This document shows positions 5,008 through 20,548 of a stretch of DNA of 64,000 nucleotides, one piece after another. Source of the stretch: Clostridia bacterium (GTDB lineage: Bacteria; Bacillota; Clostridia; Christensenellales; CAG-917); assembly GCA_017461985.1 (NCBI GenBank), contig JAFTSA010000001.1:301-64300 (forward strand). The letters are read 5' to 3'. The notes beneath the pieces were generated by a model that was given only the letters and a program-made list of their open reading frames with translations, searched no databases and was not told the DNA's origin. Both the position numbers and the translations under genes were made by a program. Each line of letters begins with the position of its first letter. The first letter of the stretch is position 1.

Positions 5008-5106
5008 CTTAATCGGGGGGATAGAAAACTTTATCCCCCTAACGTACTGTAAAGCAAAGGATAACCAAAAGATTAAAAAGAAAAATAGAAAATGGAGGTA
5101 AAACCT

Positions 5107-8100
5107 ATGAAGAAGTTTTTCTCAATCATCCTTTTAGTGCTGATGGTGTGTTCGTTCACGTTGACAGCGTGTAATAACACCGATACGCCGCATACCTGTG
5201 AAAGCGTATGTCCCGTTTGTGGAAACTGTATGGACGAAGATTGCACGGATTCGGCTTGTAGCAACAAGTGTCAGGGGCATACTCCTGCACCCGGAACGCA
5301 TACCTGTGAAAGCGTATGTCCTATTTGTGGAAACTGTATGGACGAAACGTGTACAGAAGCCGAATGTGAAGAAAAGTGCGCAGGGCACGAGCAATCGGAA
5401 ATGGCAGCGGCGCAGTTCGTTGCAAACACGGCTAACTATTTGACGGACGCAAACGAAGGTATTTCGGCGGCAGCGGCGGCTCTCGGCGGAAGTATTGAAC
5501 TTTCGTATGAAGAACCTTTCTTCCCGATGGAAATCCCGATGTCGGCAAGTGCGGCCGCCAGTTCAAGCGGTGTAAAATCACTGTCGGCAAGAAAGTATAA
5601 CGTAGGCAATTCCATCGATCTTCTTTCGGACGCGGAGGATGAAAAGGAAGAAGAAATGATGCTGTGCGCAAAATGCGGACAAGTAGAAGTTCCCGTTTCC
5701 CAAAAGTATTGCGACGCTTGCAAAGCAGCAATGGGCGGACAAACTGCTCCTAAGAATTATTCTACGGGAAGTGCTATGGAGCAATACATAATTTTCAACT
5801 CGGTAGCGAGAAAGATTCAACTTATCGTTGGCGCAACCGAGTACTATACGGAATACGATTTCCCGTTCCCGAACGAAAATGAACTTGCTCTTATCGGCAC
5901 GATTAAGTTTGAAGGCGAATTCACCAAACTTCTCAAAGAAATCGAAGATTATGAGTTAAGTGCAGACGGGTTCTACGTTATCGAAGAACCTTACTACCAA
6001 GACGGCACGTTTAATCCAGATACGGGCGAAATTGACAAAGAGTTAGGCGGACAAACGCTTATCTACAAGAAAGTACGTGGGTTTAAGCTTGAGGGCAACA
6101 CGCTCATCACTTCGTCGTATACAATTTCTTATCAATATATGGACAACAACGAAGAATTGATAAGCGAAGAAGTATACGTAGAATATACGATGGACGGCAA
6201 CAACTTCTATTATGAAAAGTACAAAATGGTAGACGGTCAAAAAGTCGTTGTCGATATGTTCGATATCATTAAAGAGGAGCCTGACGAAAATTCAGTGGGC
6301 GACGTGTATTACGTGCAAATGACCCTGAGCCAAGCAGAAATTACGGGCGTTCCCGCCGTGTACTTTGAAGAAGCGATGGATATCGCAGAGCAATGGGACA
6401 AATATGTAAACGAAAAAATGGGCACGGGATACCATGCCGAAGTTCCTACCAAGGTTTACTTAAACGGTAAAATCCACAAGATAGACCGAGACGTAATGTA
6501 CGAAATGTACTACTTCCGCGACTACGACTATGCGGCGGCAGGCTACGAAAGCTCTTGCTACGTTTATCCAATCGAAAATTGGGAAGAATTCTATGGGGAA
6601 TATTTCTATGAATATACGCGTGGAAATTCCGCACCGTTGCCCGAAAGCTGGAAAAACGGCTTCGATACCAACTTGGGCGCAAACCTTGAAGGTATGATTG
6701 AAGATTCGTTGTACGGTAAGTATGCGGAAACTCTTGTGTATAGAGCAAGCGGAAACGTTCAAATGCCAGAGGAAGGGGCAAAATATTATCCGTTCCAACT
6801 TAAAGAATCCAGCGCAACGTTAGATATCAACGATTCTTATGAAATCATTGCAAGTTCTGCGGACGACGCTGTTTGGAGCGTGAGTTCGTCCAATGAAGAA
6901 GTTGCAACCGTGAGCGGTTTAACCGTTCAAGCGGGCAGCATGGAAGGCGAAGCGATTATTACCGTGCAACGTAATAATCTCGTTAGATATTTCTACGTGC
7001 TCGTTCGCAACAGACTCGTGACCGACAATCCCGAAGAAATGACTATCCGTTTAGGAACTACGGGGCACGCATTTTTCAATGCGTATAGCAATCAAAACGA
7101 CGTGATTGTATTCTCGTCCGATAACGAAGAAATCGTTACCATCGACGAAACGGGGTGGATTACCGCGCATAAGGAAGGCGCAACGGCGGTTTGGGCGGCT
7201 ACGCAAGACGGTGAAAGATTTGAAAAGATGTTCGTTCGCGTAGTCGGCAGTGCGGATATCGTATCGTTTTATCAACCGAACGAAGGCAGCGAGGACGTAA
7301 TTTCAACGTTGCACCTTTTGGGACTGGGCAAGATTTCCGTTACTTACGATACGGTTTTGAGCTTGGACACTGAATATTATTTGCTTTTCGAGGGCTTGGA
7401 CGAGGGCGGCTCGTTCTATCAAGACACTCCGATTAACGGGCTTCCGATTTATAATCTCCTCATCAACGGACGGAGTGCGGTGGAGCATCCCGACGTGACG
7501 GTTTCGCGCGTTTACGAGGAGTACCAAAACGATACGGGCGGCACCAATTCGCATTTCCTCAATAATTACCGCAGCGTAACCTTCCATACGGCGGGAACGT
7601 ACAAGTTTGAATTTTGGTATCAACACCAAGGCGGTGAATTTGTCGAAAGAGATACCAATCAATCCTCTTATTCCAATGGCATTCCCATGAAGAACGTCGT
7701 GATTTTGGAAATCAACGTGACGGTTGGCACTCCGTATCCGTACAGATACGACGCGACCACGCACACTTACTACGTTTCCGATTACGCAGGCTTGCTTGCG
7801 TGGTACGAAGCGCAACAGCTTAACAAGAGCACGAATCTCGTGCTTGAAGCGGACATCTATATGCCGACCGTCGCGTCGGAGTTCTTGTTTGACCTTGACG
7901 GGGACGGCGTAAACGAAAGCAACTGGGGGCTTGAAACGGAGCGTTATACGGGTACAATTGACGGCAACGGTAAATATATTCGAGGCTTAACAATGAATAT
8001 CGACGAGAGCGCGAATAACGGTGCGTACGTTGCTTTTGTGTCGCAGATGTTAAGCGGTGGCGTTATAAAGAACATTAATTTTGCGGACGGTCAAATAACA

Positions 8101-8733
8101 AGCCGTTATGTCAGCGGCGTCGTCGGTAGACTTGCCGGCGGTAAAGTTATCAACTGTACCAATGCGAATACCCTTGTCGCTTGGGACGTGGCATCGGGAA
8201 TCGTACTCGATATTTGGTTCAGCGGACAAATTGTTGCTTGCGTGAATTACGGCTCGATTACCTGCGAAAACGGTGACGCTTCCGGAATCGTTTGCGGCTA
8301 TTCGGTTACCGTTGGCACTTACGCTACGGTTGTCGGTTGTATAAACTACGGTAGCGTACAGGGAAATATTGCAGGTGGTATCGTACCCCGCGGTGCGAAT
8401 TGGAAGTTGTACGGCTGCGCCGATTTCGGAACGGTGACAGGAGAAACGTCGGGGAACGTGATTGCAAAACAGTCTCGGGGCGTAGGCTTGTACGGATGCG
8501 TCTATTCGTTAGACGAAGGCTTTAAGGTGTTAGAGCGATTGACAAATGAAAAAAATGCAACCGTTTCTGATATAGGCATAATAGAAGACGCGATTGAAGA
8601 ATTAAACGCGGCGATCGAGCAATGCAACGCAACGGGTGGCATAAAATGCAAGTACCGTTACGTTCTCAACACCAATCCCACGACCTCCGAAGCGTATCCT
8701 CTTATTCTTCAAGAAGTGACGGACGCACAATAG
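5107..8733 (+). CDS. Giant surface lipoprotein with duplicated Cys-rich modules, two Big_2-like Ig domains and a C-terminal GLUG-like repeat region
   Basis: GGAGG 8 nt upstream of ATG 5107. Lipobox LTACN. HTCESVCP(V/I)CGNCMDE..C..KC.GH occurs twice. Big_2-like segments: VWSVSSSNEEVATVSGLTVQA and VFSSDNEEIVTIDETGWITAHKEG. C-terminal repeats of the type GGVIKNINFADGQI..SGVVGRLAGGKVINCTN. Confidence 0.8.
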   Translation: MKKFFSIILLVLMVCSFTLTACNNTDTPHTCESVCPVCGNCMDEDCTDSACSNKCQGHTPAPGTHTCESVCPICGNCMDETCTEAECEEKCAGHEQSEMAAAQFVANTANYLTDANEGISAAAAALGGSIELSYEEPFFPMEIPMSASAAASSSGVKSLSARKYNVGNSIDLLSDAEDEKEEEMMLCAKCGQVEVPVSQKYCDACKAAMGGQTAPKNYSTGSAMEQYIIFNSVARKIQLIVGATEYYTEYDFPFPNENELALIGTIKFEGEFTKLLKEIEDYELSADGFYVIEEPYYQDGTFNPDTGEIDKELGGQTLIYKKVRGFKLEGNTLITSSYTISYQYMDNNEELISEEVYVEYTMDGNNFYYEKYKMVDGQKVVVDMFDIIKEEPDENSVGDVYYVQMTLSQAEITGVPAVYFEEAMDIAEQWDKYVNEKMGTGYHAEVPTKVYLNGKIHKIDRDVMYEMYYFRDYDYAAAGYESSCYVYPIENWEEFYGEYFYEYTRGNSAPLPESWKNGFDTNLGANLEGMIEDSLYGKYAETLVYRASGNVQMPEEGAKYYPFQLKESSATLDINDSYEIIASSADDAVWSVSSSNEEVATVSGLTVQAGSMEGEAIITVQRNNLVRYFYVLVRNRLVTDNPEEMTIRLGTTGHAFFNAYSNQNDVIVFSSDNEEIVTIDETGWITAHKEGATAVWAATQDGERFEKMFVRVVGSADIVSFYQPNEGSEDVISTLHLLGLGKISVTYDTVLSLDTEYYLLFEGLDEGGSFYQDTPINGLPIYNLLINGRSAVEHPDVTVSRVYEEYQNDTGGTNSHFLNNYRSVTFHTAGTYKFEFWYQHQGGEFVERDTNQSSYSNGIPMKNVVILEINVTVGTPYPYRYDATTHTYYVSDYAGLLAWYEAQQLNKSTNLVLEADIYMPTVASEFLFDLDGDGVNESNWGLETERYTGTIDGNGKYIRGLTMNIDESANNGAYVAFVSQMLSGGVIKNINFADGQITSRYVSGVVGRLAGGKVINCTNANTLVAWDVASGIVLDIWFSGQIVACVNYGSITCENGDASGIVCGYSVTVGTYATVVGCINYGSVQGNIAGGIVPRGANWKLYGCADFGTVTGETSGNVIAKQSRGVGLYGCVYSLDEGFKVLERLTNEKNATVSDIGIIEDAIEELNAAIEQCNATGGIKCKYRYVLNTNPTTSEAYPLILQEVTDAQ

Positions 8734-9470
8734 TAAATCTATGCAACAACAAAAAAAGCATACGAATTAGCGTAGACGCTTTGAACTAACAAAGAACGGC
8801 GGTGGGCTTCGGCTCACCGCTTGTTATGTTTAATTTGAAAAAAGTAAAACGAAAGATGTGGAAATTGATGGCACTAGCTTGATAAAAATTTAAACTCTCA
8901 AAATGAAAGTTAGGCGTGCGCTTGGATATATACAAGTAGATAATGACCGTGAACAAATAATACGTAAAGTGTCTACCGAAACACACGAAACAACTAGACT
9001 CTTTAAGGGTGGCACTGTAAAAACTAAATACTATAACTACGATATTTACGTCGTTATATAATAAAAGAGCATAACTCGCTTTTATGAATTATGCTCAATT
9101 ATCTAAACTTGTTATGCTAGTTTCAATTTCTTGCGACTAAAGCCAATTTATGTTATCTAAAATGTAAAATTTACAAAACATTACACATGGCGACAAAGAA
9201 ATATACTTTGTATATTAAAGTTGAATCGTTTAGCTCTTCGAATCTTACGCCAGGAACCGCCGAATTATTGGCGGTTTTATTTTTATGCTTTTTGGCGGTT
9301 TTTGCAGATATTAGACGCGTGGCGGTTTTTGTCTTTTTGTCTGAAATCAAAAAACAATAAAAATAAAATTGCATAAAAAAAAATCAAGCGCAAAAACGAT
9401 TTTGAAAACATATTGTGTTTGCGACCAAATTATGGTAAAATGTATGCAGAAATCAACAGGGAAGGTCATT

Positions 9471-10500
9471 ATGAGAGCAACATTGAAATTTTTGAGTGAA
9501 CAAAGTGGTTTGTCAATAGCTGCCATTTCTCTTATTCTCAATGACAAGCCTGTGCGAGTTTCGCCCGAAAAAAAGATTCTTGTCAAAAATTTGGCAAAAC
9601 AATACAACTATAAGCCAAATATGACGGCAGTTGCTTTGGTGACAAAAAAGACAAAGACGATTGGTTTGATTTTGCCAGACATAGTTAATCCGTTTTTTGC
9701 TGTTGTTGCAAGTGAAATTAATCAAAAATTTCACGAGGCAGGATACAACATTATTTTGTGCAACACCAACAACGACATCGATCTTGAGAATAAATATGCA
9801 GGTATGTTAGAAGAGAAGCAGCTTGAAGCGCTCATAATTTGTGCTTCAGACGAAAATCATCAATGCGACCTTAGTGGGTTCTATGATCAAAACATACCAG
9901 TCATTTTTTTTTGATAGATACTACGCAGATTCCAACTACATAGTGTCTATTGACAACACTGAAGGGGCGCGTCAGGCAGTCAAATATCTTATAGAAAATG
10001 GTCATCAAAACATAGCAATGATCACCGGCCCACTTAGTTATCGATCTGCAAGAACGCGTATTGATGGTTATAAGGAAGCCCTCGTAGAGGCGGGATTGCA
10101 GGTCAACGAAGACTATATCGTTGTAGGGGATTACACTTTCGACGGAGGCCAAAGGGCGGCGAAAATAATCGGCGAGTTTGATGAAGTGACTGCCGTGTTT
10201 GCAAGCAACGACCTTATGGCATACGGAGCAATGAAGGAATTTTCTGACAGCGGCAAAAATGTGCCAAATGATATTTCCATCGTCGGTTTTGACGATCTTA
10301 ATTTTTCACAAATGTTGCGCACACCCTTGACTTCTGTCAAACAAAATTTGAAAGAACTAGCAGAAAACGTTTTTGGTTTAACGATGCGCGCAATAAATGG
10401 TTACGTCGCGCCTACGCACAAGGTCGTTGCGACCAACCTGATAGAGCGTGACAGCGTAGTCAACCGAGAAAGCGTTCACAATATTTCAGCAGTTAAATAG
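9471..10500 (+). pseudogene. LacI-family transcriptional regulator interrupted by a +1 frameshift in a T9 homopolymer
   Basis: The N-terminal HTH (ATLKFLSEQSGLSIAAISLILND) and first sugar-binding lobe are in frame 3 (tracked ORF 9369..9914). The rest (DRYYADSNYIVSIDN..VGFDDLNFSQMLRTPLTSV) is in frame 1 (9841..10500). The switch is at T9, 9904-9912. Eight Ts would read PVIFFDRYY in one frame (~342 aa). Confidence 0.85.
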
Positions 10501-10547
10501 AATTGCAAACAGATCCGTTCAATAATTTGAGCGGATTTTTTTGGGTA

Positions 10548-10576
10548 TTGACAATGGTTTTGACTTGCAGTATAAT
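10548..10576 (+). promoter_or_regulatory. Consensus sigma-A promoter for the downstream transport/catabolic locus
   Basis: TTGACA (10548-10553), 17-nt spacer, TATAAT (10571-10576). Confidence 0.7.
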
Positions 10577-10648
10577 CAACGTGAGTAAAACCTTTTATCA
10601 ACGAGCAAACCTTTTTTGCGTAGGACGAAAAACTTATTTTTTTGGACT

Positions 10649-10664
10649 GGTAAAACGATTTATC
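10649..10664 (+). promoter_or_regulatory. Candidate LacI-family operator (CG-centred pseudo-palindrome)
   Basis: GGTAAAACGATTTATC. The half-sites match 6 of 8 positions around a central CG. It lies between the promoter and the TTG start at 10691. Confidence 0.4.
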
Positions 10665-10690
10665 AAACTTATAACAAGGGGGAGTCAAAA

Positions 10691-12154
10691 TTGAAAAAAT
10701 CTAAACTTTTCATTGCTACAATTGTTTTTGTTCTTTTGTTTTCGTTGACATTTGCACTTGTCGCTTGCGACGAAAAGGGCAACGATGAAGTGATAAACAA
10801 TGACAACGATACAACACCAGACGCACCACAATACACGGCTTCTGTCACTTATACGGGGAGTGGTTTGATTATCATGCCCGGCAAGGATAGACCCAGCTAT
10901 ACTGCGACTGTCCGTGGCGTTATCGTTGATGAAACAAGCGGGGAGCCCCTCATTTCACAATTGAAAATTTGGGATAAAGCAGAAAACTTGATTTATCGTA
11001 CGGTCACTGACTATCTTGGTAGATATGAACTTGTTCTCCCTGACGGTAGCTACGATATTGAATTTAGCCATGGTAGTGAATATGAAATTGAAGTGCTCCG
11101 TGATTACGTGGTGTACACAAACGGTTATTTTAAACTGCCCGACATTTCTTTGAAACGCCTGTATTCATTGCCCAACTGGTATGCAGGAGATCTCCACCAA
11201 CATAGTACGTACAGTGATGGAAAGGATTTGCCTAGCGAAGTCCTCAAATCAAATATTGCAGTGGGCATGTCATACGGAATTTTGTCAGACCACAACAGCG
11301 TCTATCAAGTGGTTGAGTGGCTTGCCGGAAACAGAATTTATATTGGTGAAGGCAGGAATTTCTTGGCAATTCAAGGCTGGGAAGTGACCACGTCCAGAGG
11401 ACACTATCAAGCAATCAATAGCAGAGAAATTTTCAATGCAACCGCATGGTCGGCAAGTGATATTTTGCGTATTGCCAATGATATTCGTCTGCAACCGAAT
11501 ACAATTGCTCAGATTAATCACCCCGGCCGTACCGATGATATGGGATTCATTGATTGGAATCTGGCAGGACGCTTTGACACTATTGAAGTGTGGAATGGCG
11601 TTTACGCTCCTCCTTATCTTAGTGGTACAAATAAGTCCAGTTATGAGAAATGGGTTGAACTTATGAACAAGGGAACAAGACTTGCAATCGTTGGCGGAAC
11701 GGATAACCACGGTGTCAACGGCACGCCTTATGCTCCTGATTCAAATGAACTCGAATGGATCAAGCGCAATACGTATTCCGGCTGTCCCAGAACCTACGTT
11801 TATACGGAAGACTATTCGTTGGATGGAGTCTTATCTGCGATTAAACAAGGAAACTCATTTATTACAAACGGGCCTTTGGTGTTTGCAAATCTCAACGGCA
11901 AGAGTTATGGCGAAACAGTAACGCTTGAAGAGAACATGCTTCTCAACTTTGACCTCAAGTCAAATGAAGCGTTGAAACAACTTAAGATTTATGTCAATGG
12001 CAAGCTTGTCAAGACAATAGACATTGCTGACGGAGCATTTACGTACGAAGGTACGCTTGAACTTGAAAACCTAAAATCTGGTGACTGGATTAACTTGCAA
12101 CTAAGTGGTGATTTTGCCGGATTTGCAGTGACCAACGCAATATTTATCGAATAA
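10691..12154 (+). CDS. Secreted lipoprotein with a CarboxypepD_reg-like domain and a PHP-type (CehA/McbA-like) metal-dependent phosphoesterase domain
   Basis: TTG start 6 nt after AAGGGGGAG. Lipobox FALVACDE. GRYELVLPDGSYDIEF is a beta-sandwich signature. PHP motifs GDLHQHSTYSDG, ILSDHNS, INHPGR and GGTDNHG. Confidence 0.75.
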   Translation: MKKSKLFIATIVFVLLFSLTFALVACDEKGNDEVINNDNDTTPDAPQYTASVTYTGSGLIIMPGKDRPSYTATVRGVIVDETSGEPLISQLKIWDKAENLIYRTVTDYLGRYELVLPDGSYDIEFSHGSEYEIEVLRDYVVYTNGYFKLPDISLKRLYSLPNWYAGDLHQHSTYSDGKDLPSEVLKSNIAVGMSYGILSDHNSVYQVVEWLAGNRIYIGEGRNFLAIQGWEVTTSRGHYQAINSREIFNATAWSASDILRIANDIRLQPNTIAQINHPGRTDDMGFIDWNLAGRFDTIEVWNGVYAPPYLSGTNKSSYEKWVELMNKGTRLAIVGGTDNHGVNGTPYAPDSNELEWIKRNTYSGCPRTYVYTEDYSLDGVLSAIKQGNSFITNGPLVFANLNGKSYGETVTLEENMLLNFDLKSNEALKQLKIYVNGKLVKTIDIADGAFTYEGTLELENLKSGDWINLQLSGDFAGFAVTNAIFIE

Positions 12155-12191
12155 AAAAACGATAATAAATTATACAACCCGGAGGTAAATT

Positions 12192-13085
12192 ATGAAAAAA
12201 ACAGCACTCTTATTGATCGTGATTTTGGCAGTTATGTGCGTCTTTGTAGCATGCGATGAGCCCAACCAACCCGATGGCCCTGCCGCACCTGGCGCAGATA
12301 TCGTGATCAACGACGTCAAAACAATGACAGCGGGAATCACCGCAGTGTATCAAAACGAGAACGGTGATTTTATTGCAACTCACCACTCAAAGTTTACGGT
12401 CATCGACGACGATTTCACCGTCAATGAACTTGTTCAACTTTTCTTTGACAAATCTTATGGCGTGACAGCGCTTGACCCCGACAGCAACGGCTCAACCGAT
12501 GAACTCTTCCTGTCCTACGGCGCATGGCCTGATATTACAGATATTTCTCTTCCTAATACAGGCGAAATGCAATGGGTTGTTCGCGACAGCGCATATCAAC
12601 TTGTTTCTGACACAACAGCATCAGTTGTCGACAATGCAGAATACTACTACAGCTACGAAAGCATCGACAACCCCGTGCCTTTCACTGCAAGCGATCTTTC
12701 AGCAGTTGCACCCGATGATGACAAGCCTTATTTCTACATAAACACAACTAGTGCAAAAACCGTAAAAATCACCATCAGCGCAGAAAAATCTGATAAGTCA
12801 ATTGCAACGTTGTTCAGTGGAACAGTTCAAATCACCGATGACGATTTGACAGTTGAAGAAGTCATCAAGAAAGTCTGCGACGAGAGAGGTATTCTTTACA
12901 GCATAAGCGGTGGATTCATCAACTCAATCGGCGAGTACGCAAACGACTTTGGTTCAGCATATGCATGGTGGTCAAGCGGATTTATGGTCAACGGAGAAGA
13001 ATATGTCAACTATGCAGGAGTCAACGAAGTGTTTGTCGGTGACGGAGCAGAGATTTACGTAAATTACAGATACGGCACATTCTAA
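12192..13085 (+). CDS. Lipoprotein with a DUF4430-like (transcobalamin-beta-like) C-terminal domain
   Basis: GGAGG RBS. Lipobox VFVACDE. The C-terminus LTVEEVIKKVCDERGILYSISGGFINSIGEY..WWSSGFMVNGEEYVNYAGVNEVFVGDGAEIYVNYRY fits the DUF4430 pattern as I recall it. Confidence 0.6.
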   Translation: MKKTALLLIVILAVMCVFVACDEPNQPDGPAAPGADIVINDVKTMTAGITAVYQNENGDFIATHHSKFTVIDDDFTVNELVQLFFDKSYGVTALDPDSNGSTDELFLSYGAWPDITDISLPNTGEMQWVVRDSAYQLVSDTTASVVDNAEYYYSYESIDNPVPFTASDLSAVAPDDDKPYFYINTTSAKTVKITISAEKSDKSIATLFSGTVQITDDDLTVEEVIKKVCDERGILYSISGGFINSIGEYANDFGSAYAWWSSGFMVNGEEYVNYAGVNEVFVGDGAEIYVNYRYGTF

Positions 13086-13172
13086 ACTAAAACTTGACTG
13101 TAATAAGCAAAAAAACACACAATCACGTCCATTGCCGACGACGGCATGGATGTGATTGATATGGAGAAAGAT

Positions 13173-14336
13173 ATGAAGAAGACCAAAATTTTATCTATAT
13201 TGTTGGTGCTTTGCATTATTTGTTCATGCATATTTGCACTGACAGCATGTTCTGATGAAGAGGAAGGAAAAGAATTTGACCCTACATCAGCAAAAATCGC
13301 ATTGCTTGTTAATGGGACACTTGGTGATAAATCATTCTTCGATTCAGCCAACGAGGGTCTAAAACAAATCAAGGCTGCATATCCCAACACAACCGTTAAG
13401 GCCATTGAAATGGGCAACGATAGCACAAAATATCGTAGTTTCGTGGATGATGCTTGCGAAGAATATGACATCATCATTATGGGAACGTGGCAAATGTACA
13501 ATCATATGTCATATGCGACTGTCGAATATCCTGACAAAAAATTTATCCTGTTTGATTATGCAGGCGATTTCTCTGATGGAAAAGGCGCAAACAACCTTTA
13601 TTCAATTGAATTTAAACAAAATCAAGTCGCATTCCTTGGCGGAGTTTTGGCAGCGCAAATCGTTGGCGATTCAAGTCTTGCTCTTTCAAACGGTTCAAAG
13701 CAAATTGGCTTTGTAGGTGGCGCTGACTCCCCGATTATCAAAGACTTCCTCGTAGGATTTATTGAAGGTGTCCATTATGCCGACCCTGACTTTGACCCTA
13801 CCAAGGCTGCAAACGATCCTGCAAATGCAAACAAAATAAAGGTGCAAAGCAGTTTTATAGGAACGTTCCTTGATCCTACAAGAGCAAAAGACCAAGCAAA
13901 CATCCTGTACGACATGGGATGTGACCTTGTTTTTGCTGCTGCATCACAAGCAGGACTCGGCGCGCTGGAAGCTGCTGTTGAAAACAACAAATATTATCTT
14001 GCTTGCGACTCAGATCAGATCAGACTTTTTGCAGATCAACCTGCAAAACAACGTCATATCGTGGCAAGTGTTCTCAAAAAGGTTGACGTTGCAATTTTCC
14101 GTGCTTTTGAAAAGATTGTCAATGGCGAAATGGAGTGGGGCACAAACGAAAGAGTTGGATTTGAAGAGGATTGCATCGGTTTCATCGGATACAACGCAGA
14201 CATTCCTCAAAGAATGATTGACGCTGTTGAAGAAGCAGAAGCAAAGCTTAGAGCAGGTCAAATTACAGTGACATCTGCAGTGGGAAGCAATGCGGATATG
14301 TCCATTGTTGACGGCATAATTTATTCTGCAAAATAG
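13173..14336 (+). CDS. BMP-family (PnrA/Med-like) ABC substrate-binding lipoprotein, nucleoside/riboside type
   Basis: ATG 13173 after GGAGAAAG. Lipobox FALTACSD. BMP-like segments IALLVNGTLGDKSFFDSA, IGFVGGADSPIIKDFLVGFIEG and ACDSDQ. Confidence 0.8.
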   Translation: MKKTKILSILLVLCIICSCIFALTACSDEEEGKEFDPTSAKIALLVNGTLGDKSFFDSANEGLKQIKAAYPNTTVKAIEMGNDSTKYRSFVDDACEEYDIIIMGTWQMYNHMSYATVEYPDKKFILFDYAGDFSDGKGANNLYSIEFKQNQVAFLGGVLAAQIVGDSSLALSNGSKQIGFVGGADSPIIKDFLVGFIEGVHYADPDFDPTKAANDPANANKIKVQSSFIGTFLDPTRAKDQANILYDMGCDLVFAAASQAGLGALEAAVENNKYYLACDSDQIRLFADQPAKQRHIVASVLKKVDVAIFRAFEKIVNGEMEWGTNERVGFEEDCIGFIGYNADIPQRMIDAVEEAEAKLRAGQITVTSAVGSNADMSIVDGIIYSAK

Positions 14337-14349
14337 CATTTATCAAAAT

Positions 14350-14380
14350 GACAGTGCCACAACTTTGATGTGGCACTGTC
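14350..14380 (+). other. Perfect 12-bp stem-loop directly after the binding-protein gene (intra-operon RNA element)
   Basis: gacagtgccaca-actttga-tgtggcactgtc. No T-run follows. Confidence 0.6.
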
Positions 14381-14560
14381 GTTCGATTGCCTTGTTGTTG
14401 AAAAGCAGAGCGAATGAAAATATATGAGTTGCAGTGCCTTGTCAACGAGGTTTGACAAAGCGTCGTTTAGAAGTGTTTTTGACGCAGTGCTTGAGCACAA
14501 CGGGTTATATCAGTCCGACGAAAGCCTTTCAGAGTTGAAGGCTTCGTCAGGGGGATAAAA

Positions 14561-16102
14561 ATGGACAACGTATTACAACTGGTAGGCATCGGAAGAGTTT
14601 ATGGCAATGGCATAGTTGCAAACCGTGACATCAATATCGAAGTTCGACGAGGAGAAATCCACGCAATTGTCGGCGAAAACGGCGCTGGAAAGTCCACTTT
14701 GATGGAGATAATTTACGGTATGGAGAAGCCGGATTCCGGACAGATGTTTGTCTACGGAAAGGAAGTCAATTTCTCATCTTCAATGGATGCCATTAAAATG
14801 AACATCGGCATGGTTCATCAACACTTTATGTTGGTGAATTCTTTGACGGTCGGAGAAAATCTTATCCTAAATACCCCAAAAAATACAATTATCAACAAGA
14901 GAAAAATTGCACAATTAACACAGGAATTGTGTGAAAAATATGGTTTCAATCTTGATGGTAATGCGGTTGTGAAAAACTTGTCCGTTGGCAATCAACAACA
15001 ACTTGAAATCTTAAAAGCACTATATAGGGGTGCGCAAATACTTATACTTGATGAGCCTACTGCCGTTCTTACTCCTCAAGAAACGGAGAAGCTCTTTGAG
15101 CAATTGAAAAATCTTAAAGAGAAAGGCCATACAATTTTGTTTATTTCTCACAAACTCAATGAAATAGTCGGCATATCTGACAGAATTTCTATACTTCGTC
15201 AGGGCACTATAGTTGACACATTTGAAACATCCACCGTTGACGTGTCACAACTTTCAAACCTCATAGTAGGAAGAGAGTTTAGCGAAAAGATTGAAAAGCC
15301 TGAAATAGAGCGAGGAGACGTGGTTTTGAGGGTTGACGGACTTTCATACGCCAATTCTCCCGTCAAGAAATTGCTTGACGACGTCAGTTTCACTGTGTCT
15401 AAAGGTGAAATCGTGGGATTGTGCGGTGTTGAGGGCAATGGACAAAGAGAACTCATACAAGCAATTACTGGCGCAATAAAAAATTACAGCGGAACGATTG
15501 AACTGTGTGGCGCGTCAGTCAAAGGCATAAGCAGAAAAAAATTGCGTGAAAGGGGTGTTGCTCACGTCCCCGAAGACAGAATTGCTGAAGGTTTGAGCAA
15601 AGATTCATCTATTGCGGATAACCTCATTTCTACGCTGTATATAAACGGGAAGTTTATTAAGCACAAGTTTTTCCTTGATAGAAAGACGATCAAAGAGTTT
15701 TCAGATGAGCAGATAGCAAAATATGAAATAAAAGCCAACGATTCCAACGACATTGTCGGCATGCTTTCCGGCGGAAACATGCAGAAAGTGGTTGTAGCCA
15801 GAGAATTTGAAGATGATCCTGTCTTTGCAGTCATTGATCAACCTACAAGAGGCGTTGACATCGGGGCGTCAAAAATTATTCGCGACAAAATAGTGGAGCT
15901 ACGTTGCAATGGATGCGCCGTGTTGCTCAATTCAGCAGATTTGTCAGAACTGTTGAATATCAGTGATAGAGTGCTGGTATTTTATAGCGGAAAAATAGTG
16001 GCAGACTTTGAAAATCTGACCGAAATAGACGAAGAGACGCTGGGCAGATATATGCTCGGACTTGACGATATGTTCAGAGATGAAAAAGATGGGCAAGAAT
16101 AA
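14561..16102 (+). CDS. Tandem-domain ABC ATPase (ribose/nucleoside importer type)
   Basis: Walker A GENGAGKST, signature LSVGNQQQ, Walker B ILILDEP. The second half has LSGGNMQK. Confidence 0.9.
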   Translation: MDNVLQLVGIGRVYGNGIVANRDINIEVRRGEIHAIVGENGAGKSTLMEIIYGMEKPDSGQMFVYGKEVNFSSSMDAIKMNIGMVHQHFMLVNSLTVGENLILNTPKNTIINKRKIAQLTQELCEKYGFNLDGNAVVKNLSVGNQQQLEILKALYRGAQILILDEPTAVLTPQETEKLFEQLKNLKEKGHTILFISHKLNEIVGISDRISILRQGTIVDTFETSTVDVSQLSNLIVGREFSEKIEKPEIERGDVVLRVDGLSYANSPVKKLLDDVSFTVSKGEIVGLCGVEGNGQRELIQAITGAIKNYSGTIELCGASVKGISRKKLRERGVAHVPEDRIAEGLSKDSSIADNLISTLYINGKFIKHKFFLDRKTIKEFSDEQIAKYEIKANDSNDIVGMLSGGNMQKVVVAREFEDDPVFAVIDQPTRGVDIGASKIIRDKIVELRCNGCAVLLNSADLSELLNISDRVLVFYSGKIVADFENLTEIDEETLGRYMLGLDDMFRDEKDGQE

Positions 16103-17231
16103 TTTCAAAATAATGTTGACAAATATGCGCGCTAAACTTCAGGCAAAACAAGCGTCAAAAAGCATATCAAAACGGGTTGAGTCAATAAGGATTCAAACCG
16201 AGTTGTTGCGCACCCTTGTGGCCGTTGTCATAGCCTTTGCCGTGGCGCTTATAATCATATTGTGCGTTAGCAAACAGCCTATGGAAGCGTTCAAATATCT
16301 TGTAATCGGGCCACTTATGAAACCAAGATATTTTAATCAGGTGCTAGTGCAGATGGTTCCTCTTGCGCTTACGGGCCTTGCTCTTGCAATTATGTTGAAG
16401 GCCGGACAATTTAATTTGGCTACGGAAGGATCATTTATTCTTGGTGGCGTGCTGGCGGCATTTTTTGCAATAAAAGTTGCGTTGCCTATGGGGATACACC
16501 CGATTTTGGCCATTATTTTCGGCATTATCGGAGGTGCGTTTATTTGTGTTGTTCCAGCGATATTGAAACTTTCTTTTGGCATATCCGAGATGGTCGTTTC
16601 TTTGATGATGAACTATATTGCTCTGCGTATAGGCAACACCATCATTAGAGGAGCGTTGCTGGATGAATCTGCAGGGATTCTTACCACAGAACAATTTCAC
16701 GAGACTGCGCAAATGCACACAATCCCAGTTGGCGAACTGGAAATTCAAGTGGCGCTAATCATTATGGTGATTGTAGTGGTAGGCTTTTATGTGTATTTAA
16801 GCAAGACACGCAGTGGATACGCCTTACAACTCAGCGGATTAAATGGAAAATTTTTGGCATTTTCAGGCATAGGCGCAAGTGGGTTGATCCTTGCTTCACA
16901 AATTATGGGTGGAGCAGTCGCCGGTGGCGCTGGCGCTATGTACACGCTCAGCAACCTTGAAAGATATGATCTTGTCAACACCTTCCCAAATAAAGGTTTT
17001 GACGGCATGATTGTCACAATACTTGCCCGCAACAATCCTCTTCTTGTGCCGATTGCAGCGTTTTTTCTTGCGTACGTAAGAGAGGGCGCAGAGATTATGT
17101 CAAGGCACACGGACGTTTCTGTGGAAATTATGTCTATTATACAAGGCGTAATAATTATCTTTGTGGCAGGTCAAGCATTATTCTCCAAGATGCAAAACAA
17201 ACGCATAATCAAGGAGGTCGCAAATGGATGA
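16089..17231 (+). CDS. ABC transporter permease (BPD_transp_2 type)
   Basis: Multi-span hydrophobic protein. ATG 16089 overlaps the ATPase stop. The tracked ORF starts at 16062. Confidence 0.8.
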   Translation: MGKNNFKIMLTNMRAKLQAKQASKSISKRVESIRIQTELLRTLVAVVIAFAVALIIILCVSKQPMEAFKYLVIGPLMKPRYFNQVLVQMVPLALTGLALAIMLKAGQFNLATEGSFILGGVLAAFFAIKVALPMGIHPILAIIFGIIGGAFICVVPAILKLSFGISEMVVSLMMNYIALRIGNTIIRGALLDESAGILTTEQFHETAQMHTIPVGELEIQVALIIMVIVVVGFYVYLSKTRSGYALQLSGLNGKFLAFSGIGASGLILASQIMGGAVAGGAGAMYTLSNLERYDLVNTFPNKGFDGMIVTILARNNPLLVPIAAFFLAYVREGAEIMSRHTDVSVEIMSIIQGVIIIFVAGQALFSKMQNKRIIKEVANG

Positions 17232-18228
17232 TTTTTTCAACATAATTTTTTCAAATGAATTTTTAGTTTCAATTTTGCGTTTGTCGACCCCGATATTGTT
17301 TGCTGCGTTAGGCGCGCTGATATCAAACAAAGCAGGCGTTGTCAACATCGGTTTGGAAGGAATAATGCTGTTTGCTGCGTTATTTGGTGTGTTGGGTTGC
17401 TCGTGGACGGGAAATTTGTTCGCAGGGGGATTGATAGGCGTTTTAATAGGCGCGTTTGTAAGCGCGTTGCTTGCGTTTTCAACCTTGTACTTAAAGTCTG
17501 ACACGATACTCACCGGCGTAGTCATAAACTTGGTCGGCGCAGGAGGCACAATATTCTTCCTTGAGGTTTTCACGGGGGATAAAAACGTGTCCACCTCTAT
17601 TGTAAGCGAAGTTTTCCCTACTCTTGAAATTGAGGCTATCAAAGACGTACCATTTATTGGGGGGCTACTCAGTGGGCACAACGTGCTGACGTGGGTTGCT
17701 ATTGCTCTTGCAATACTGTTGTGGTTTGTTGTCAACAAGACGCATTTTGGAATTAAACTTAAAGCAGTTGGAGAAAATCCCGTCGCAGCAAGCAGTTTGG
17801 GAATTCCCGTCAAAAATTATAGATTTATTGCGATTGTGCTGAGTGGCGTTTTAGCCTCTGTAGGCGGAATATTCTTGTCTATGGGATATGTTTCTTTCTT
17901 CGCATCGAATATGACTGCGGGAAGGGGATTTATTGCGTTGGCAGCAGAAGCTATGGCAATGGGAAATCCCCTATTCACGTTGCTGAGTAGTCTGCTATTT
18001 GGATTTATGTCAGCGCTTGCGATTGCATTTGGTTCAAGTGGCTTTATGGCCATATTTAATGAAATATTTGAAATGATGCCTTACGTGGCAACCATTGTTG
18101 CTTTGATCGTGTATGCAGTTATTGCCAAACAAAAAAACAAAATGAAAGAGGTAAAAAATGGAAAAAGCTTGGGAAAGGGAATACAAAATGATGTGCGACG
18201 CCGTCCCTCAGGTATTAGAAGAAGATGA
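17224..18228 (+). CDS. ABC transporter permease (second subunit)
   Basis: AGGAGG RBS. Multi-span hydrophobic protein overlapping the previous stop. The basic C-terminal tail runs 71 nt into the next gene. Confidence 0.8.
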   Translation: MDDFFNIIFSNEFLVSILRLSTPILFAALGALISNKAGVVNIGLEGIMLFAALFGVLGCSWTGNLFAGGLIGVLIGAFVSALLAFSTLYLKSDTILTGVVINLVGAGGTIFFLEVFTGDKNVSTSIVSEVFPTLEIEAIKDVPFIGGLLSGHNVLTWVAIALAILLWFVVNKTHFGIKLKAVGENPVAASSLGIPVKNYRFIAIVLSGVLASVGGIFLSMGYVSFFASNMTAGRGFIALAAEAMAMGNPLFTLLSSLLFGFMSALAIAFGSSGFMAIFNEIFEMMPYVATIVALIVYAVIAKQKNKMKEVKNGKSLGKGIQNDVRRRPSGIRRR

Positions 18229-19549
18229 ACAAGGATGGTTGTTTTCAGAAACTATAGAAAATCTTGACGACACGTTGCTCAAGATGAAGTGGAAGAGCAA
18301 TGTCCCAGGCTCAAACGCCCCAGAGAGAGTCATTATAGGCGCTATTGCAGACGTTGGCAATATGGGATATAATGTTTCTGAAGCAGAAAAACTTATTGAC
18401 GAGGGCTTGGAATATTACAAAAATAATGATATGCTTGGACTCAATAGGGTCACGTGGCGTATTTGGAATATCCTAAACAACGCTCCAAAGATTGAAGGAC
18501 ACGAATATTTTTCATATGCTGTTTATGATACGTTTGAAAAGTATAAGAACAAAATCAATCTTGACCTTACGTACGATAAGGTTGACAAAGACAGTCAGGA
18601 TTTTCTTGATAGAACATATTATGGCTGGTTGGCGCAAATTGTTGGAGGCGCAATCGGCACTGCCATTGAGGGCTACGTAACCGAGCAGATTGAAAAAGCA
18701 TTCGGCGATATAAATTCGTATGTAAGAACACCAAACACTTACAACGATGACATCACTTATGAGATCGCCTTTCTGGCTGCAGCCGCCCGAAAAGGAAGGG
18801 CAGTGACGTCTGCTGATATTGCAGAGGAGTGGGCTGCGCTTGTGCCTTTTGGATGGTCGGCAGAAGAGTGGGCGTTGAAAAACATAAAAAGCGGAATATA
18901 TCCACCAGAAAGTGGATATTTGAACAATCCTTATCGTGAATGGATTGGAGCGCAAATGCGTGGTGCGGTGTGCGGCATGGTTGCTCCGGGCAACCCGGTT
19001 TTGGCGGCGGAGTACGCATATAGAGATGGTGTAGTGTCGCACTATAATAATGGTGTCCTTGGAGAAATTTTCAATGCAGTTATGGTTTCACTCAGCTACG
19101 TCAAAAAAGATGTGCGAGAAATAGTGGAACTTGCAGTGGAAAGTTATCTTCCCCATGATAGCGAATATTATGGCGTGGTCAAGTTTGCCCTCAATAATTG
19201 CAAAAAGTGCAGTGACTGGAGAACGGCATGGGAGCCTGTAAGAGAAAAATATAAGAGATACAACTGGATTCACGCATATCCAAATGCAGCGTCCGAGGTT
19301 ATTTCTCTGTGGTTCGGCAACGGCGACTTTGACAAAACGATGAACATTTCTTCAATGATCGGATACGACGTTGATTGCAATGCGGCACAAATTGCGACTA
19401 TAATAGGTATAATCAGCAAGGAAAACGCAATGGACGAACGATGGACAAAGCCCATTGGCGACGTACTTAAAACGTATTTGAGAAAATATAAGGAAATAAG
19501 CATTAGATCACTCGCTCAACAGACCGTGGATATTAGCAAAAAAATGTAG
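18158..19549 (+). CDS. ADP-ribosylglycohydrolase-family protein (463 aa)
   Basis: AAAGAGG RBS. Motifs VGGAIGTAIEGY and IGYDVDCNAAQIATIIG resemble the GDALG and DTDTNAA metal-site motifs of the family. Confidence 0.7.
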   Translation: MEKAWEREYKMMCDAVPQVLEEDEQGWLFSETIENLDDTLLKMKWKSNVPGSNAPERVIIGAIADVGNMGYNVSEAEKLIDEGLEYYKNNDMLGLNRVTWRIWNILNNAPKIEGHEYFSYAVYDTFEKYKNKINLDLTYDKVDKDSQDFLDRTYYGWLAQIVGGAIGTAIEGYVTEQIEKAFGDINSYVRTPNTYNDDITYEIAFLAAAARKGRAVTSADIAEEWAALVPFGWSAEEWALKNIKSGIYPPESGYLNNPYREWIGAQMRGAVCGMVAPGNPVLAAEYAYRDGVVSHYNNGVLGEIFNAVMVSLSYVKKDVREIVELAVESYLPHDSEYYGVVKFALNNCKKCSDWRTAWEPVREKYKRYNWIHAYPNAASEVISLWFGNGDFDKTMNISSMIGYDVDCNAAQIATIIGIISKENAMDERWTKPIGDVLKTYLRKYKEISIRSLAQQTVDISKKM

Positions 19550-19557
19550 AGGGAAAT

Positions 19558-20466
19558 ATGCATATGAAGAGAATTTTTGTAATGGGCAGCATGAATATGG
19601 ACATCGTTTTTGAGGTTGAAGGTCTTCCAAAAAATGGCGAAACCATTAATGCTAAAGACTTGCTTGTCAATCCGGGAGGAAAAGGAGCAAACCAAGCAGT
19701 TGCTGCAGCTAAACAAAACGTAGCGGTGACCATGTTGGGCGCAATTGGGAATGACCAGTTTGGCGAACAATTTCTGGCCGAGCTTAAAAACGTCGGGATA
19801 AATGCGCAATTTGTGACCAGAAAAGATTGTAGAACAGGTGTCGCAGGGGTGTTGCTACATCAAGGAGACAATCGAATAATGGTGTATGGCGGTGCAAATT
19901 CAGTCTATAGCTTTGAGGATTTTGCAGATATTTTAACCAAAAATGCTGAAAAAGGAGACATATTTGTAACACAACTTGAAACCAACATTGACGTCGTTTG
20001 TAAGGGATTGAAATTAGCAAAAGAGCTTGGCATGACAACAATTCTCAATCCTGCTCCGGCATCACAACAAATTGTTTCTGCGTTAAAATATTGCGACATC
20101 GTAATTCCAAACGAAATAGAAGCCGAAGTTCTTACAGGAATCCTTCCTTGCAAAGAAAACTACGCTGAGTTGCGTGATAAGTTTAAAAAACTTGGAGCGT
20201 CTTGTGTGATTATTACTTGTGGAAACAACGGAAGCGTGTATTTAAGTGACGATATTGAGCTCTTTGGCGCTTACGAGGTTGACGCCGTTGACACGACTGC
20301 TGCAGGAGATACGTATATCGGAGTTTTGTCTGCCAGTCTTGCAAAGGGCTATTCCATCAGGGATGCCATAAAGTATGCCACAGCGGCATCTGCAATCGCT
20401 GTCACTCGCAAGGGCGCGCAACGTTCTATACCCATGGAAAAAGAAGTGCAAGAATTTCTTAAATAA
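19558..20466 (+). CDS. rbsK: Ribokinase (PfkB family)
   Basis: NPGGKGANQAVAAAK and DTTAAGDTYIGVL motifs, 302 aa. Confidence 0.85.
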   Translation: MHMKRIFVMGSMNMDIVFEVEGLPKNGETINAKDLLVNPGGKGANQAVAAAKQNVAVTMLGAIGNDQFGEQFLAELKNVGINAQFVTRKDCRTGVAGVLLHQGDNRIMVYGGANSVYSFEDFADILTKNAEKGDIFVTQLETNIDVVCKGLKLAKELGMTTILNPAPASQQIVSALKYCDIVIPNEIEAEVLTGILPCKENYAELRDKFKKLGASCVIITCGNNGSVYLSDDIELFGAYEVDAVDTTAAGDTYIGVLSASLAKGYSIRDAIKYATAASAIAVTRKGAQRSIPMEKEVQEFLK

Positions 20467-20506
20467 AACACAATAAACAAGGAATATAAACTTTTTGTTT
20501 ACTATC

Positions 20507-20548
20507 AAATGGAAATCGTTCAAGCAGGAGCGGTTTCCATTTGTTTTT
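20507..20548 (+). terminator. Rho-independent terminator after rbsK
   Basis: aaatggaaatcg / cggtttccattt stem followed by gttttt. Confidence 0.7.

Follow-up and report, generated by a model that had tools for sequence, protein, structure and literature searches.

Anatomy of the split regulator gene

The window analysed here (the whole stretch of DNA, 64,000 nucleotides long) contains a LacI-family regulator gene that is divided into two open reading frames and is followed by a terminator-like hairpin, a promoter, two predicted operators, and an operon of eight genes (Table 1). The division coincides with positions 9904-9912, which read TTTTTTTTT, exactly nine T residues. The upstream frame runs through this tract (...CCA GTC ATT TTT TTT TGA) and is closed by a premature TGA at positions 9912-9914. 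The tract is located in the middle of the gene, at codons 145-147 of 342, and is the longest homopolymer within the regulator gene and the sole run of at least 8 bases there. Coordinates are given for a start at ATG 9471 (MRATLKF...); an in-frame alternative, ATG 9444, is used in public gene calls. The N-termini of orthologues are MRATL or MRTTL.

Table 1. Features of the regulator gene, the adjacent intergenic regions, and the downstream operon, in window coordinates
Feature	Position	Strand	Remarks
Near-palindrome CAAAAACGATTTTG 5' of regulator	9391..9404	.	Resembles operator core; possible weak auto-operator, inferred
Regulator, N-terminal part (HTH and start of sugar-binding core)	9471..9914	+	147 codons
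T9 homopolymer	9904..9912	+	Species wild type T8: ATT TTT TTT G = Ile-Phe-Phe-Asp
Regulator, C-terminal part	9913..10500	+	One base out of frame relative to the N-terminal part; GAT at 9913 to TAG at 10498-10500, 195 open codons
Terminator-like hairpin and T run 3' of regulator gene	10511..10542	+	Hairpin 10511-10538
Sigma-70-type promoter, TTGACA-17 nt-TATAAT	10548..10576	+	12/12 consensus matches
Predicted operator O1 GAGTAAAACCTTTTATCA	10583..10600	.	Directly 3' of the -10 element
Predicted operator O2 TGGTAAAACGATTTATCA	10648..10665	.	65 bp beyond O1, just 5' of the ribosome-binding site
Presumed target operon, eight genes	10691..20466	+	Gene order kept after the intact regulator in L027-L032
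Terminator-like hairpin ending the operon	20506..20543	+	

Deletion of one T in silico restored a protein of 342 amino acids with the junction PVIFFDRYY. The Pfam domain Peripla_BP_1 was unbroken over this junction (residues 61-308, profile positions 1-261, 103.2 bits); Peripla_BP_3 was matched at 106.6 bits, and Peripla_BP_4 was matched as well. The repaired protein corresponds, with no mismatch, to the last 342 residues of an intact protein from the public record, P0121, which is 351 amino acids long when counted from the upstream ATG; the C-terminal part alone is identical to residues 157-351 of P0121. Because the repaired protein equals P0121, there is no second lesion in the regulator. 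The preliminary description of this locus had claimed that the two halves of the regulator are intact and differ by a one-base shift within the T run, that eight Ts would give the junction PVIFFDRYY, and that other lesions are absent. The open reading frames and the identity to P0121 bear out the first claim, the repaired translation agrees with the second, and the third holds in full, with zero further changes relative to the intact allele. A stop-to-stop map of open reading frames revealed no further split genes in the 64-kb window, which speaks for good assembly quality.

Among NCBIfam models, the regulator was nearest to RbsR, PurR, CytR, and UriR, and all of these matches fell below cut-off (the RbsR model, for example, scored 231 bits against an equivalog cut-off of 382). 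Alignments to the RbsR, PurR, and CytR models began at regulator residue 2-3. The Pfam LacI HTH model (PF00356) was matched weakly at residues 10-50, with 20.5 bits against a gathering score of 27. The HTH of this regulator clade is atypical: its recognition helix is AAISLILN, where xxVSRVLN is usual. Even so, the operators are well conserved. The regulator shares with the RbsR/CytR/PurR/UriR branch a common domain layout, a palindromic operator with a central CG, and a neighbouring uptake operon that contains a ribokinase gene. It differs from this branch in scoring far under every equivalog cut-off, and in having a neighbouring transporter that is of the Bmp type and not RbsABC. The C-terminal tail of the regulator varies between strains, taking the form ...NRESVHNISAVK, a shorter ...SVAKLK, or a frameshifted extension (P0134, P0126/P0128/P0129/P0133, P0140). 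On one 1458-bp ENA contig the regulator is chimeric, its last ~60 residues coming from another LacI-type sequence; this may be an assembly chimera.

Promoter, predicted operators, and presumed target operon

The promoter of the downstream operon is conserved at orthologous loci. Of the five other loci examined, four (L028, L034/L035, L044, and L046) have the predicted operator pair at the corresponding positions; at the fifth, L045, O1 was not detected and only the O2 copy was seen. The sister-species form of the O2 element is a perfect 18-bp palindrome, TGATAAAACGTTTTATCA. The consensus promoter followed by two putative palindromic operators is the classic layout of LacI-family control regions. 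The intergenic region of L046 contains four copies of the operator palindrome. The 18-bp palindrome has the look of an operator motif for a LacI clade that no named family model matched above its cut-off, and the conserved motif could be used to predict the regulon of this clade.

The genes of the downstream operon code, in order, for a secreted CehA/McbA-family metallohydrolase, a lipoprotein without a family assignment, a Bmp/PnrA-type binding protein, an ABC ATPase, two permeases, an ADP-ribosylglycohydrolase-family protein, and, as the last gene product, a ribokinase, which scores above the curated cut-off of TIGR02152. We infer that the regulator represses an operon for ribose/ribonucleoside-type scavenging. 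The link between regulator and operon is supported by the promoter with all 12 consensus matches, by the two conserved palindromes, and by the conserved gene order. The CehA/McbA (PHP-type) metallohydrolase carries a CarboxypepD_reg-like domain. The unusual make-up of the operon suggests extracellular release, uptake, and de-ribosylation of some ribosylated compound.

Several observations concern the DNA 5' of the regulator gene. Beside the near-palindrome, the A tract at positions 9375-9383 is A7, A8, A9, or TA6, depending on the strain, and the A5 inside the near-palindrome at 9391-9404 is A6 in every other haplotype. The segment at 9375-9404 may therefore be an auto-operator of variable spacing. 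Further upstream, at positions 9269-9331, three direct copies of TGGCGGTTTTTG with 24-27-bp spacing lie over the terminator-like hairpin of the preceding gene, and this repeat region is partly absent from L028-L030. A gene at positions 5092-8733 codes for a secreted, Cys-rich protein of 1213 amino acids in which the motif CESVCPxCGNCMDExC recurs; a Big_2 domain is its sole family assignment.

Tract length in public assemblies and sister species

A search with the repaired-sequence protein returned an intact 351-amino-acid protein, P0001, at 99% identity; it represents a cluster of 28 variants, 15 of which were listed; NCBI, ENA, and Logan together have at least 75 contigs with these 15. P0121, the residue-for-residue match to the repaired window protein, is NCBI MBR2056732.1, annotated as ‘MAG: Clostridia bacterium’. 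All 17 of the in-frame related loci that were read at the DNA level have T8. The closest of the long comparisons, with L031 (Logan SRR12529369, a 34-kb contig), showed 11,593 nt identical to the window save one T, and L027 (a 394-kb contig) differed from the window by 25 substitutions and a single gap, located at the tract, over 18.9 kb. Four other assemblies of this haplotype (L027, L031, L033, and L055) have T8. The two halves found in the window are recorded only as MBQ9107208.1 (156 amino acids) and MBQ9107209.1 (205 amino acids), on one 201,633-bp NCBI MAG contig, and no ENA or Logan re-assembly record of these T9 half-proteins was found. The comparisons indicate that the wild-type tract length in the species is T8, and that the T9 allele of the window is a single mutational step away from a co-circulating T8 sequence.

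Searches elsewhere were negative. A species-representative genome collection scanned with the intact protein gave only paralogues, with identity of 38% or less, so that the species is either missing from it or masked. In JGI metagenome contigs, a flank-anchored DNA pattern with the tract length left free gave 0 matches, and a scan with the protein gave identities of 35% or less, which indicates that this collection lacks the organism. An N-terminally shortened protein of 231 amino acids, P0135, was considered as a second null allele and rejected: the scaffold in question has a gap of Ns and T8 at the tract. The gap lies at positions 2860-2870 of L055, where the regulator gene of this same-haplotype scaffold contains Ns and low-quality bases, which gave rise to the spurious database protein.

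The T9 length was also found on another haplotype, at L002 and L003, which encode P0138, a protein with a stop right after ...PVIFF; this haplotype is marked by D replacing E at one residue and by YYTDS beyond the tract. A third haplotype, L004, has T7 and encodes P0137, which stops after ...PVIFLIDTTQIPTI. P0137 and P0138 both belong to the N-terminal-fragment cluster. Of the loci compared, L048 was nearest to L002/L003 and L049/L052 to L004, and these nearest loci all have T8. The distances to the closest T8 sequence were 5 differences for L002/L003 and 1 for L004, values that are overestimates because the pairwise comparison was ungapped upstream of the gene, and that served only for naming nearest neighbours. 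The contigs of L002-L004 are short (723-949 bp) and probably of low coverage, and error is possible there; L002 is identical to L003, and the two may come from one common sample. Even so, the assembled sequences imply three or more separate indel events, or errors, in this single T run.

A tract of T8 keeps the gene in frame, and tracts of T7 and T9 put it out of frame. Out-of-frame contigs number 4, versus at least 75 in-frame ones, or ~5%. The preliminary description had proposed comparing tract length in related strains and metagenomes as a check on switching; the comparison did uncover T7, T8, and T9 on three haplotypes, but the out-of-frame forms proved to be rare. No sample with both T8 and non-T8 tracts was seen among the sample accessions listed for the closest intact haplotypes. 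The codons at the tract are ATT TTT TTT in all 20 species loci. When strains were compared pairwise with the window, over as much as 19 kb each, the tract was the sole frame-breaking indel within a gene. Indels at the 3' end of the regulator gene in some strains change the C-terminal tail only, and the remaining differences in homopolymer length are intergenic (A7-A9 at 9375, A5/A6 at 9391, T7 at 10536, and A7/A8 at 13108). As far as assembled sequences can tell, the site is demonstrably indel-prone in nature.

Orthologues from sister species, which lie in the same neighbourhood of genes and share 61-80% amino acid identity, have only T4-T6 for this I/V-F-F-D. The codons are ATA TTT TTT GAC at L034-L043 (T6), GTA TTT TTC GAC at L044 (T5), GTT TTC TTC GAT at L045 (T4), and ATA TTT TTC GAC at L046 (T5). 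Since the sister species encode I/V-F-F with T4-T6, the long run is a species-specific synonymous accident. Its 8-nt length is the product of one synonymous third-position choice that is specific to this species and unconserved, and the pattern argues that the tract is not maintained by selection. A synonymous choice of ATT over ATA can thus create a slippage hot spot.

Dinucleotide shuffles of the window gave an expectation of 7.65 +/- 3.7 A/T runs of 9 nt, versus 2 observed, the other one being the intergenic A9 at positions 9375-9383, just 5' of the regulator gene. The presence of T9 is not a composition artefact. The depletion of 9-nt A/T runs across the window is consistent with selection against slippage-prone runs in the genome. 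Runs of such length are hypermutable and prone to transcriptional slippage (PMC1088944; PMC2831843), and inactivating homopolymers have been reported to be enriched at the 5' ends of genes (PMC2831843).

Possible origins of the ninth T

The results narrow the split in the window to an ordinary homopolymer frameshift in a repressor gene, either a real rare allele or an artefact. With moderate confidence, we attribute it to a real and very recent +1 slippage that would have caused loss of function at a species-specific hot spot, as part of a rare recurrent polymorphism. The functional regulator would be an RbsR/CytR-like LacI-family repressor with eight Ts at the tract. Slipped-strand mispairing would have added one T in the longest homopolymer of the gene, and the extra T would put TGA directly after Phe147, so that ~57% of the protein would be lost, and with it most of the core that binds the effector and forms the dimer. 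The two conserved palindromic operators between the promoter and the operon start would then lose repression, and the adjacent operon, for ribose/ribonucleoside-type uptake and ribokinase, would become constitutive, being driven from a very strong promoter. Back-mutation to T8 would be physically possible, and slippage of RNA polymerase on nine Ts could leave the T9 allele leaky. The event must be very recent, if real, because nothing else differs from intact alleles. The T9 allele should derepress the operon, since the protein is cut at residue 147 and lacks most of its dimerisation core. The T7 and T9 alleles on different haplotypes mark, on this evidence, a mutational hot spot with a recurrent polymorphism of low frequency.

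The closest parallel from the same protein family is E. coli lacI, whose (CTGG)3 repeat is a slipped-strand hot spot where the gain or loss of one unit dominates spontaneous loss-of-function mutation and makes the operon constitutive. Both cases involve a short intragenic repeat, with the difference that the lacI repeat is a tetranucleotide, not a homopolymer. The lacI repeat is regarded as a mutational hot spot and not as phase variation, and the same reading is favoured for the window. In the present species, too, a slippage hot spot appears to dominate the natural loss-of-function variation of a repressor, which can be tracked through public metagenome assemblies.

A tentative second explanation is that the repressor gene is intact in the organism, with T8, and that homopolymer-associated read errors or the assembler introduced the extra T, possibly when several samples were co-assembled. 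Indel errors classically occur in homopolymers; T8 is found in four other assemblies of the identical haplotype, and only the NCBI MAG record contains the half-proteins of the window. The sample names of the closest relatives suggest that the MAG belongs to a ruminant-gut study, in which PCR-free Illumina NovaSeq reads were assembled with MEGAHIT or IDBA-UD (PMC8199421), and this study, the one most likely behind the MAG, also binned co-assemblies (PMC8199421). On the other side, a PCR-free Illumina consensus is seldom wrong at 8-9 nt, no other gene is broken in the 64 kb despite several intragenic runs of 7 and 8 nt, and T9 and T7 also occur in other samples that were processed with other assembly software. 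Slippage in the organism itself is given preference over an error of sequencing or assembly.

The preliminary description had also raised a phase-variable repressor, in which reversible T7/T8/T9 slippage would toggle the whole transport/catabolic operon, a form of bet-hedging. An evolved switch of this kind is unlikely. The three tract lengths on three haplotypes, each one step from T8, are what such a switch would produce; ATT TTT TTT is fixed in 20 of 20 species loci, a switch in the repressor would govern eight genes from a consensus promoter, and switches with A/T runs of 7-9 nt have precedents in B. subtilis swrA and L. monocytogenes inlA (PMC2831843). Against these points, out-of-frame alleles make up only the ~5% of contigs noted above, the T4-T6 of the sister species mean that the tract was not kept there, its position is mid-gene, away from the 5' end, this genome segment has fewer 9-nt A/T runs than expected, and T8 and T9 did not co-occur within samples, among those visible. 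An evolved on/off switch is thus possible and poorly supported. A slim chance, similarly, is that the run is a young but genuine contingency tract, in which T7/T8/T9 slippage would give a heritable, stochastic ON state of the operon, and transcriptional slippage on T9 would allow a leaky state in between.

The precedents help to place the locus. In B. subtilis swrA, an A8/A9 frameshift makes a Firmicute homopolymer ON/OFF allele (PMC2831843). The likeness is considerable: in both cases one base is inserted in an 8-nt A:T run of a low-GC Gram-positive bacterium, a regulatory gene is turned off in a way that slippage can reverse, and both alleles are found among strains. The swrA tract, however, is at the 5' end of its gene and its switching has been measured, whereas the window tract is located mid-gene in a metabolic repressor and is missing from sister species. 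Reversible inactivation by homopolymers is also described for the A6/A7 tract of L. monocytogenes inlA and the 7C tract of M. tuberculosis glpK (PMC2831843; bioRxiv 10.1101/717272). In these genes, as in the window, length changes of a coding homopolymer recur independently in nature, turning the gene off and potentially back on. For inlA and glpK, though, there are measured reversion frequencies and a phenotype or selective context, while the window allele is known from assembled consensus alone. If T8/T9 mixtures at the level of reads are real, the locus would offer a tractable case of a gut commensal in which metabolic derepression is stochastic; if not, it comes down to a routine frameshift or a problem of assembly. 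A true contingency tract here would make a metabolic regulon phase-variable in a non-pathogen, one of the gut/rumen Clostridia, and the variation would be visible directly in metagenomes.

Programmed recoding, in which T9 is the intended structure and full-length protein is made via transcriptional slippage (as in mxiE or tssM) or via a +1 frameshift at UUU UGA (as in prfB), is very improbable. The nine Ts followed by GA do place UUU UGA in the 0 frame, a shift-prone combination of the ‘shifty stop’ type. Nine consecutive Ts are also enough for RNA polymerase to slip efficiently in many bacteria (PMC1088944; PMC4256274). Yet the split arrangement is unconserved, given the in-frame T8 of nearly all relatives and the T4-T6 of sister species, and no Shine-Dalgarno-like stimulator was found 5' of the site. 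A prfB-like programmed +1 frameshift as a designed feature was rejected on these two grounds. In Shigella mxiE, Thermus dnaX, and Citrobacter tssM, transcriptional slippage takes place at A/T runs of 9-11 nt (PMC1088944; PMC4256274). The window resembles them in that a 9-nt T run parts two overlapping frames, and RNA polymerase could restore the frame in some transcripts; it differs in that the split form is conserved and functional in those genes, while T9 in the window is a rare derived allele and T8 is the norm. An accidental partial rescue of the T9 allele, by slippage of RNA polymerase or by a +1 shift at UUU UGA, is plausible.

An old, decaying pseudogene, in which the repressor has long been dispensable, would account for the interruption of the gene and is excluded by the identity to P0121 and L031: no further substitution or indel separates the gene from intact alleles, and the operators, promoter, and terminator are all intact. 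We accord this reading next to no probability. The preliminary description had named a uniform T9 with accumulating additional lesions as the sign of a plain pseudogene, and the opposite was found, as T8 prevails and nothing else has changed. Its other suggestion, a very recent pseudogenisation that would derepress the downstream locus, fares best, given the conserved operators; of the phase-variable reading, the variation in length stands, and the rarity of out-of-frame tracts, the short runs of sister species, and the mid-gene position speak against the rest.

The locus carries a practical lesson for annotation: the ‘LacI family regulator’ of 156 amino acids and the ‘substrate-binding domain protein’ of 205 amino acids that are annotated in the MAG are one regulator, divided by a single-base indel.
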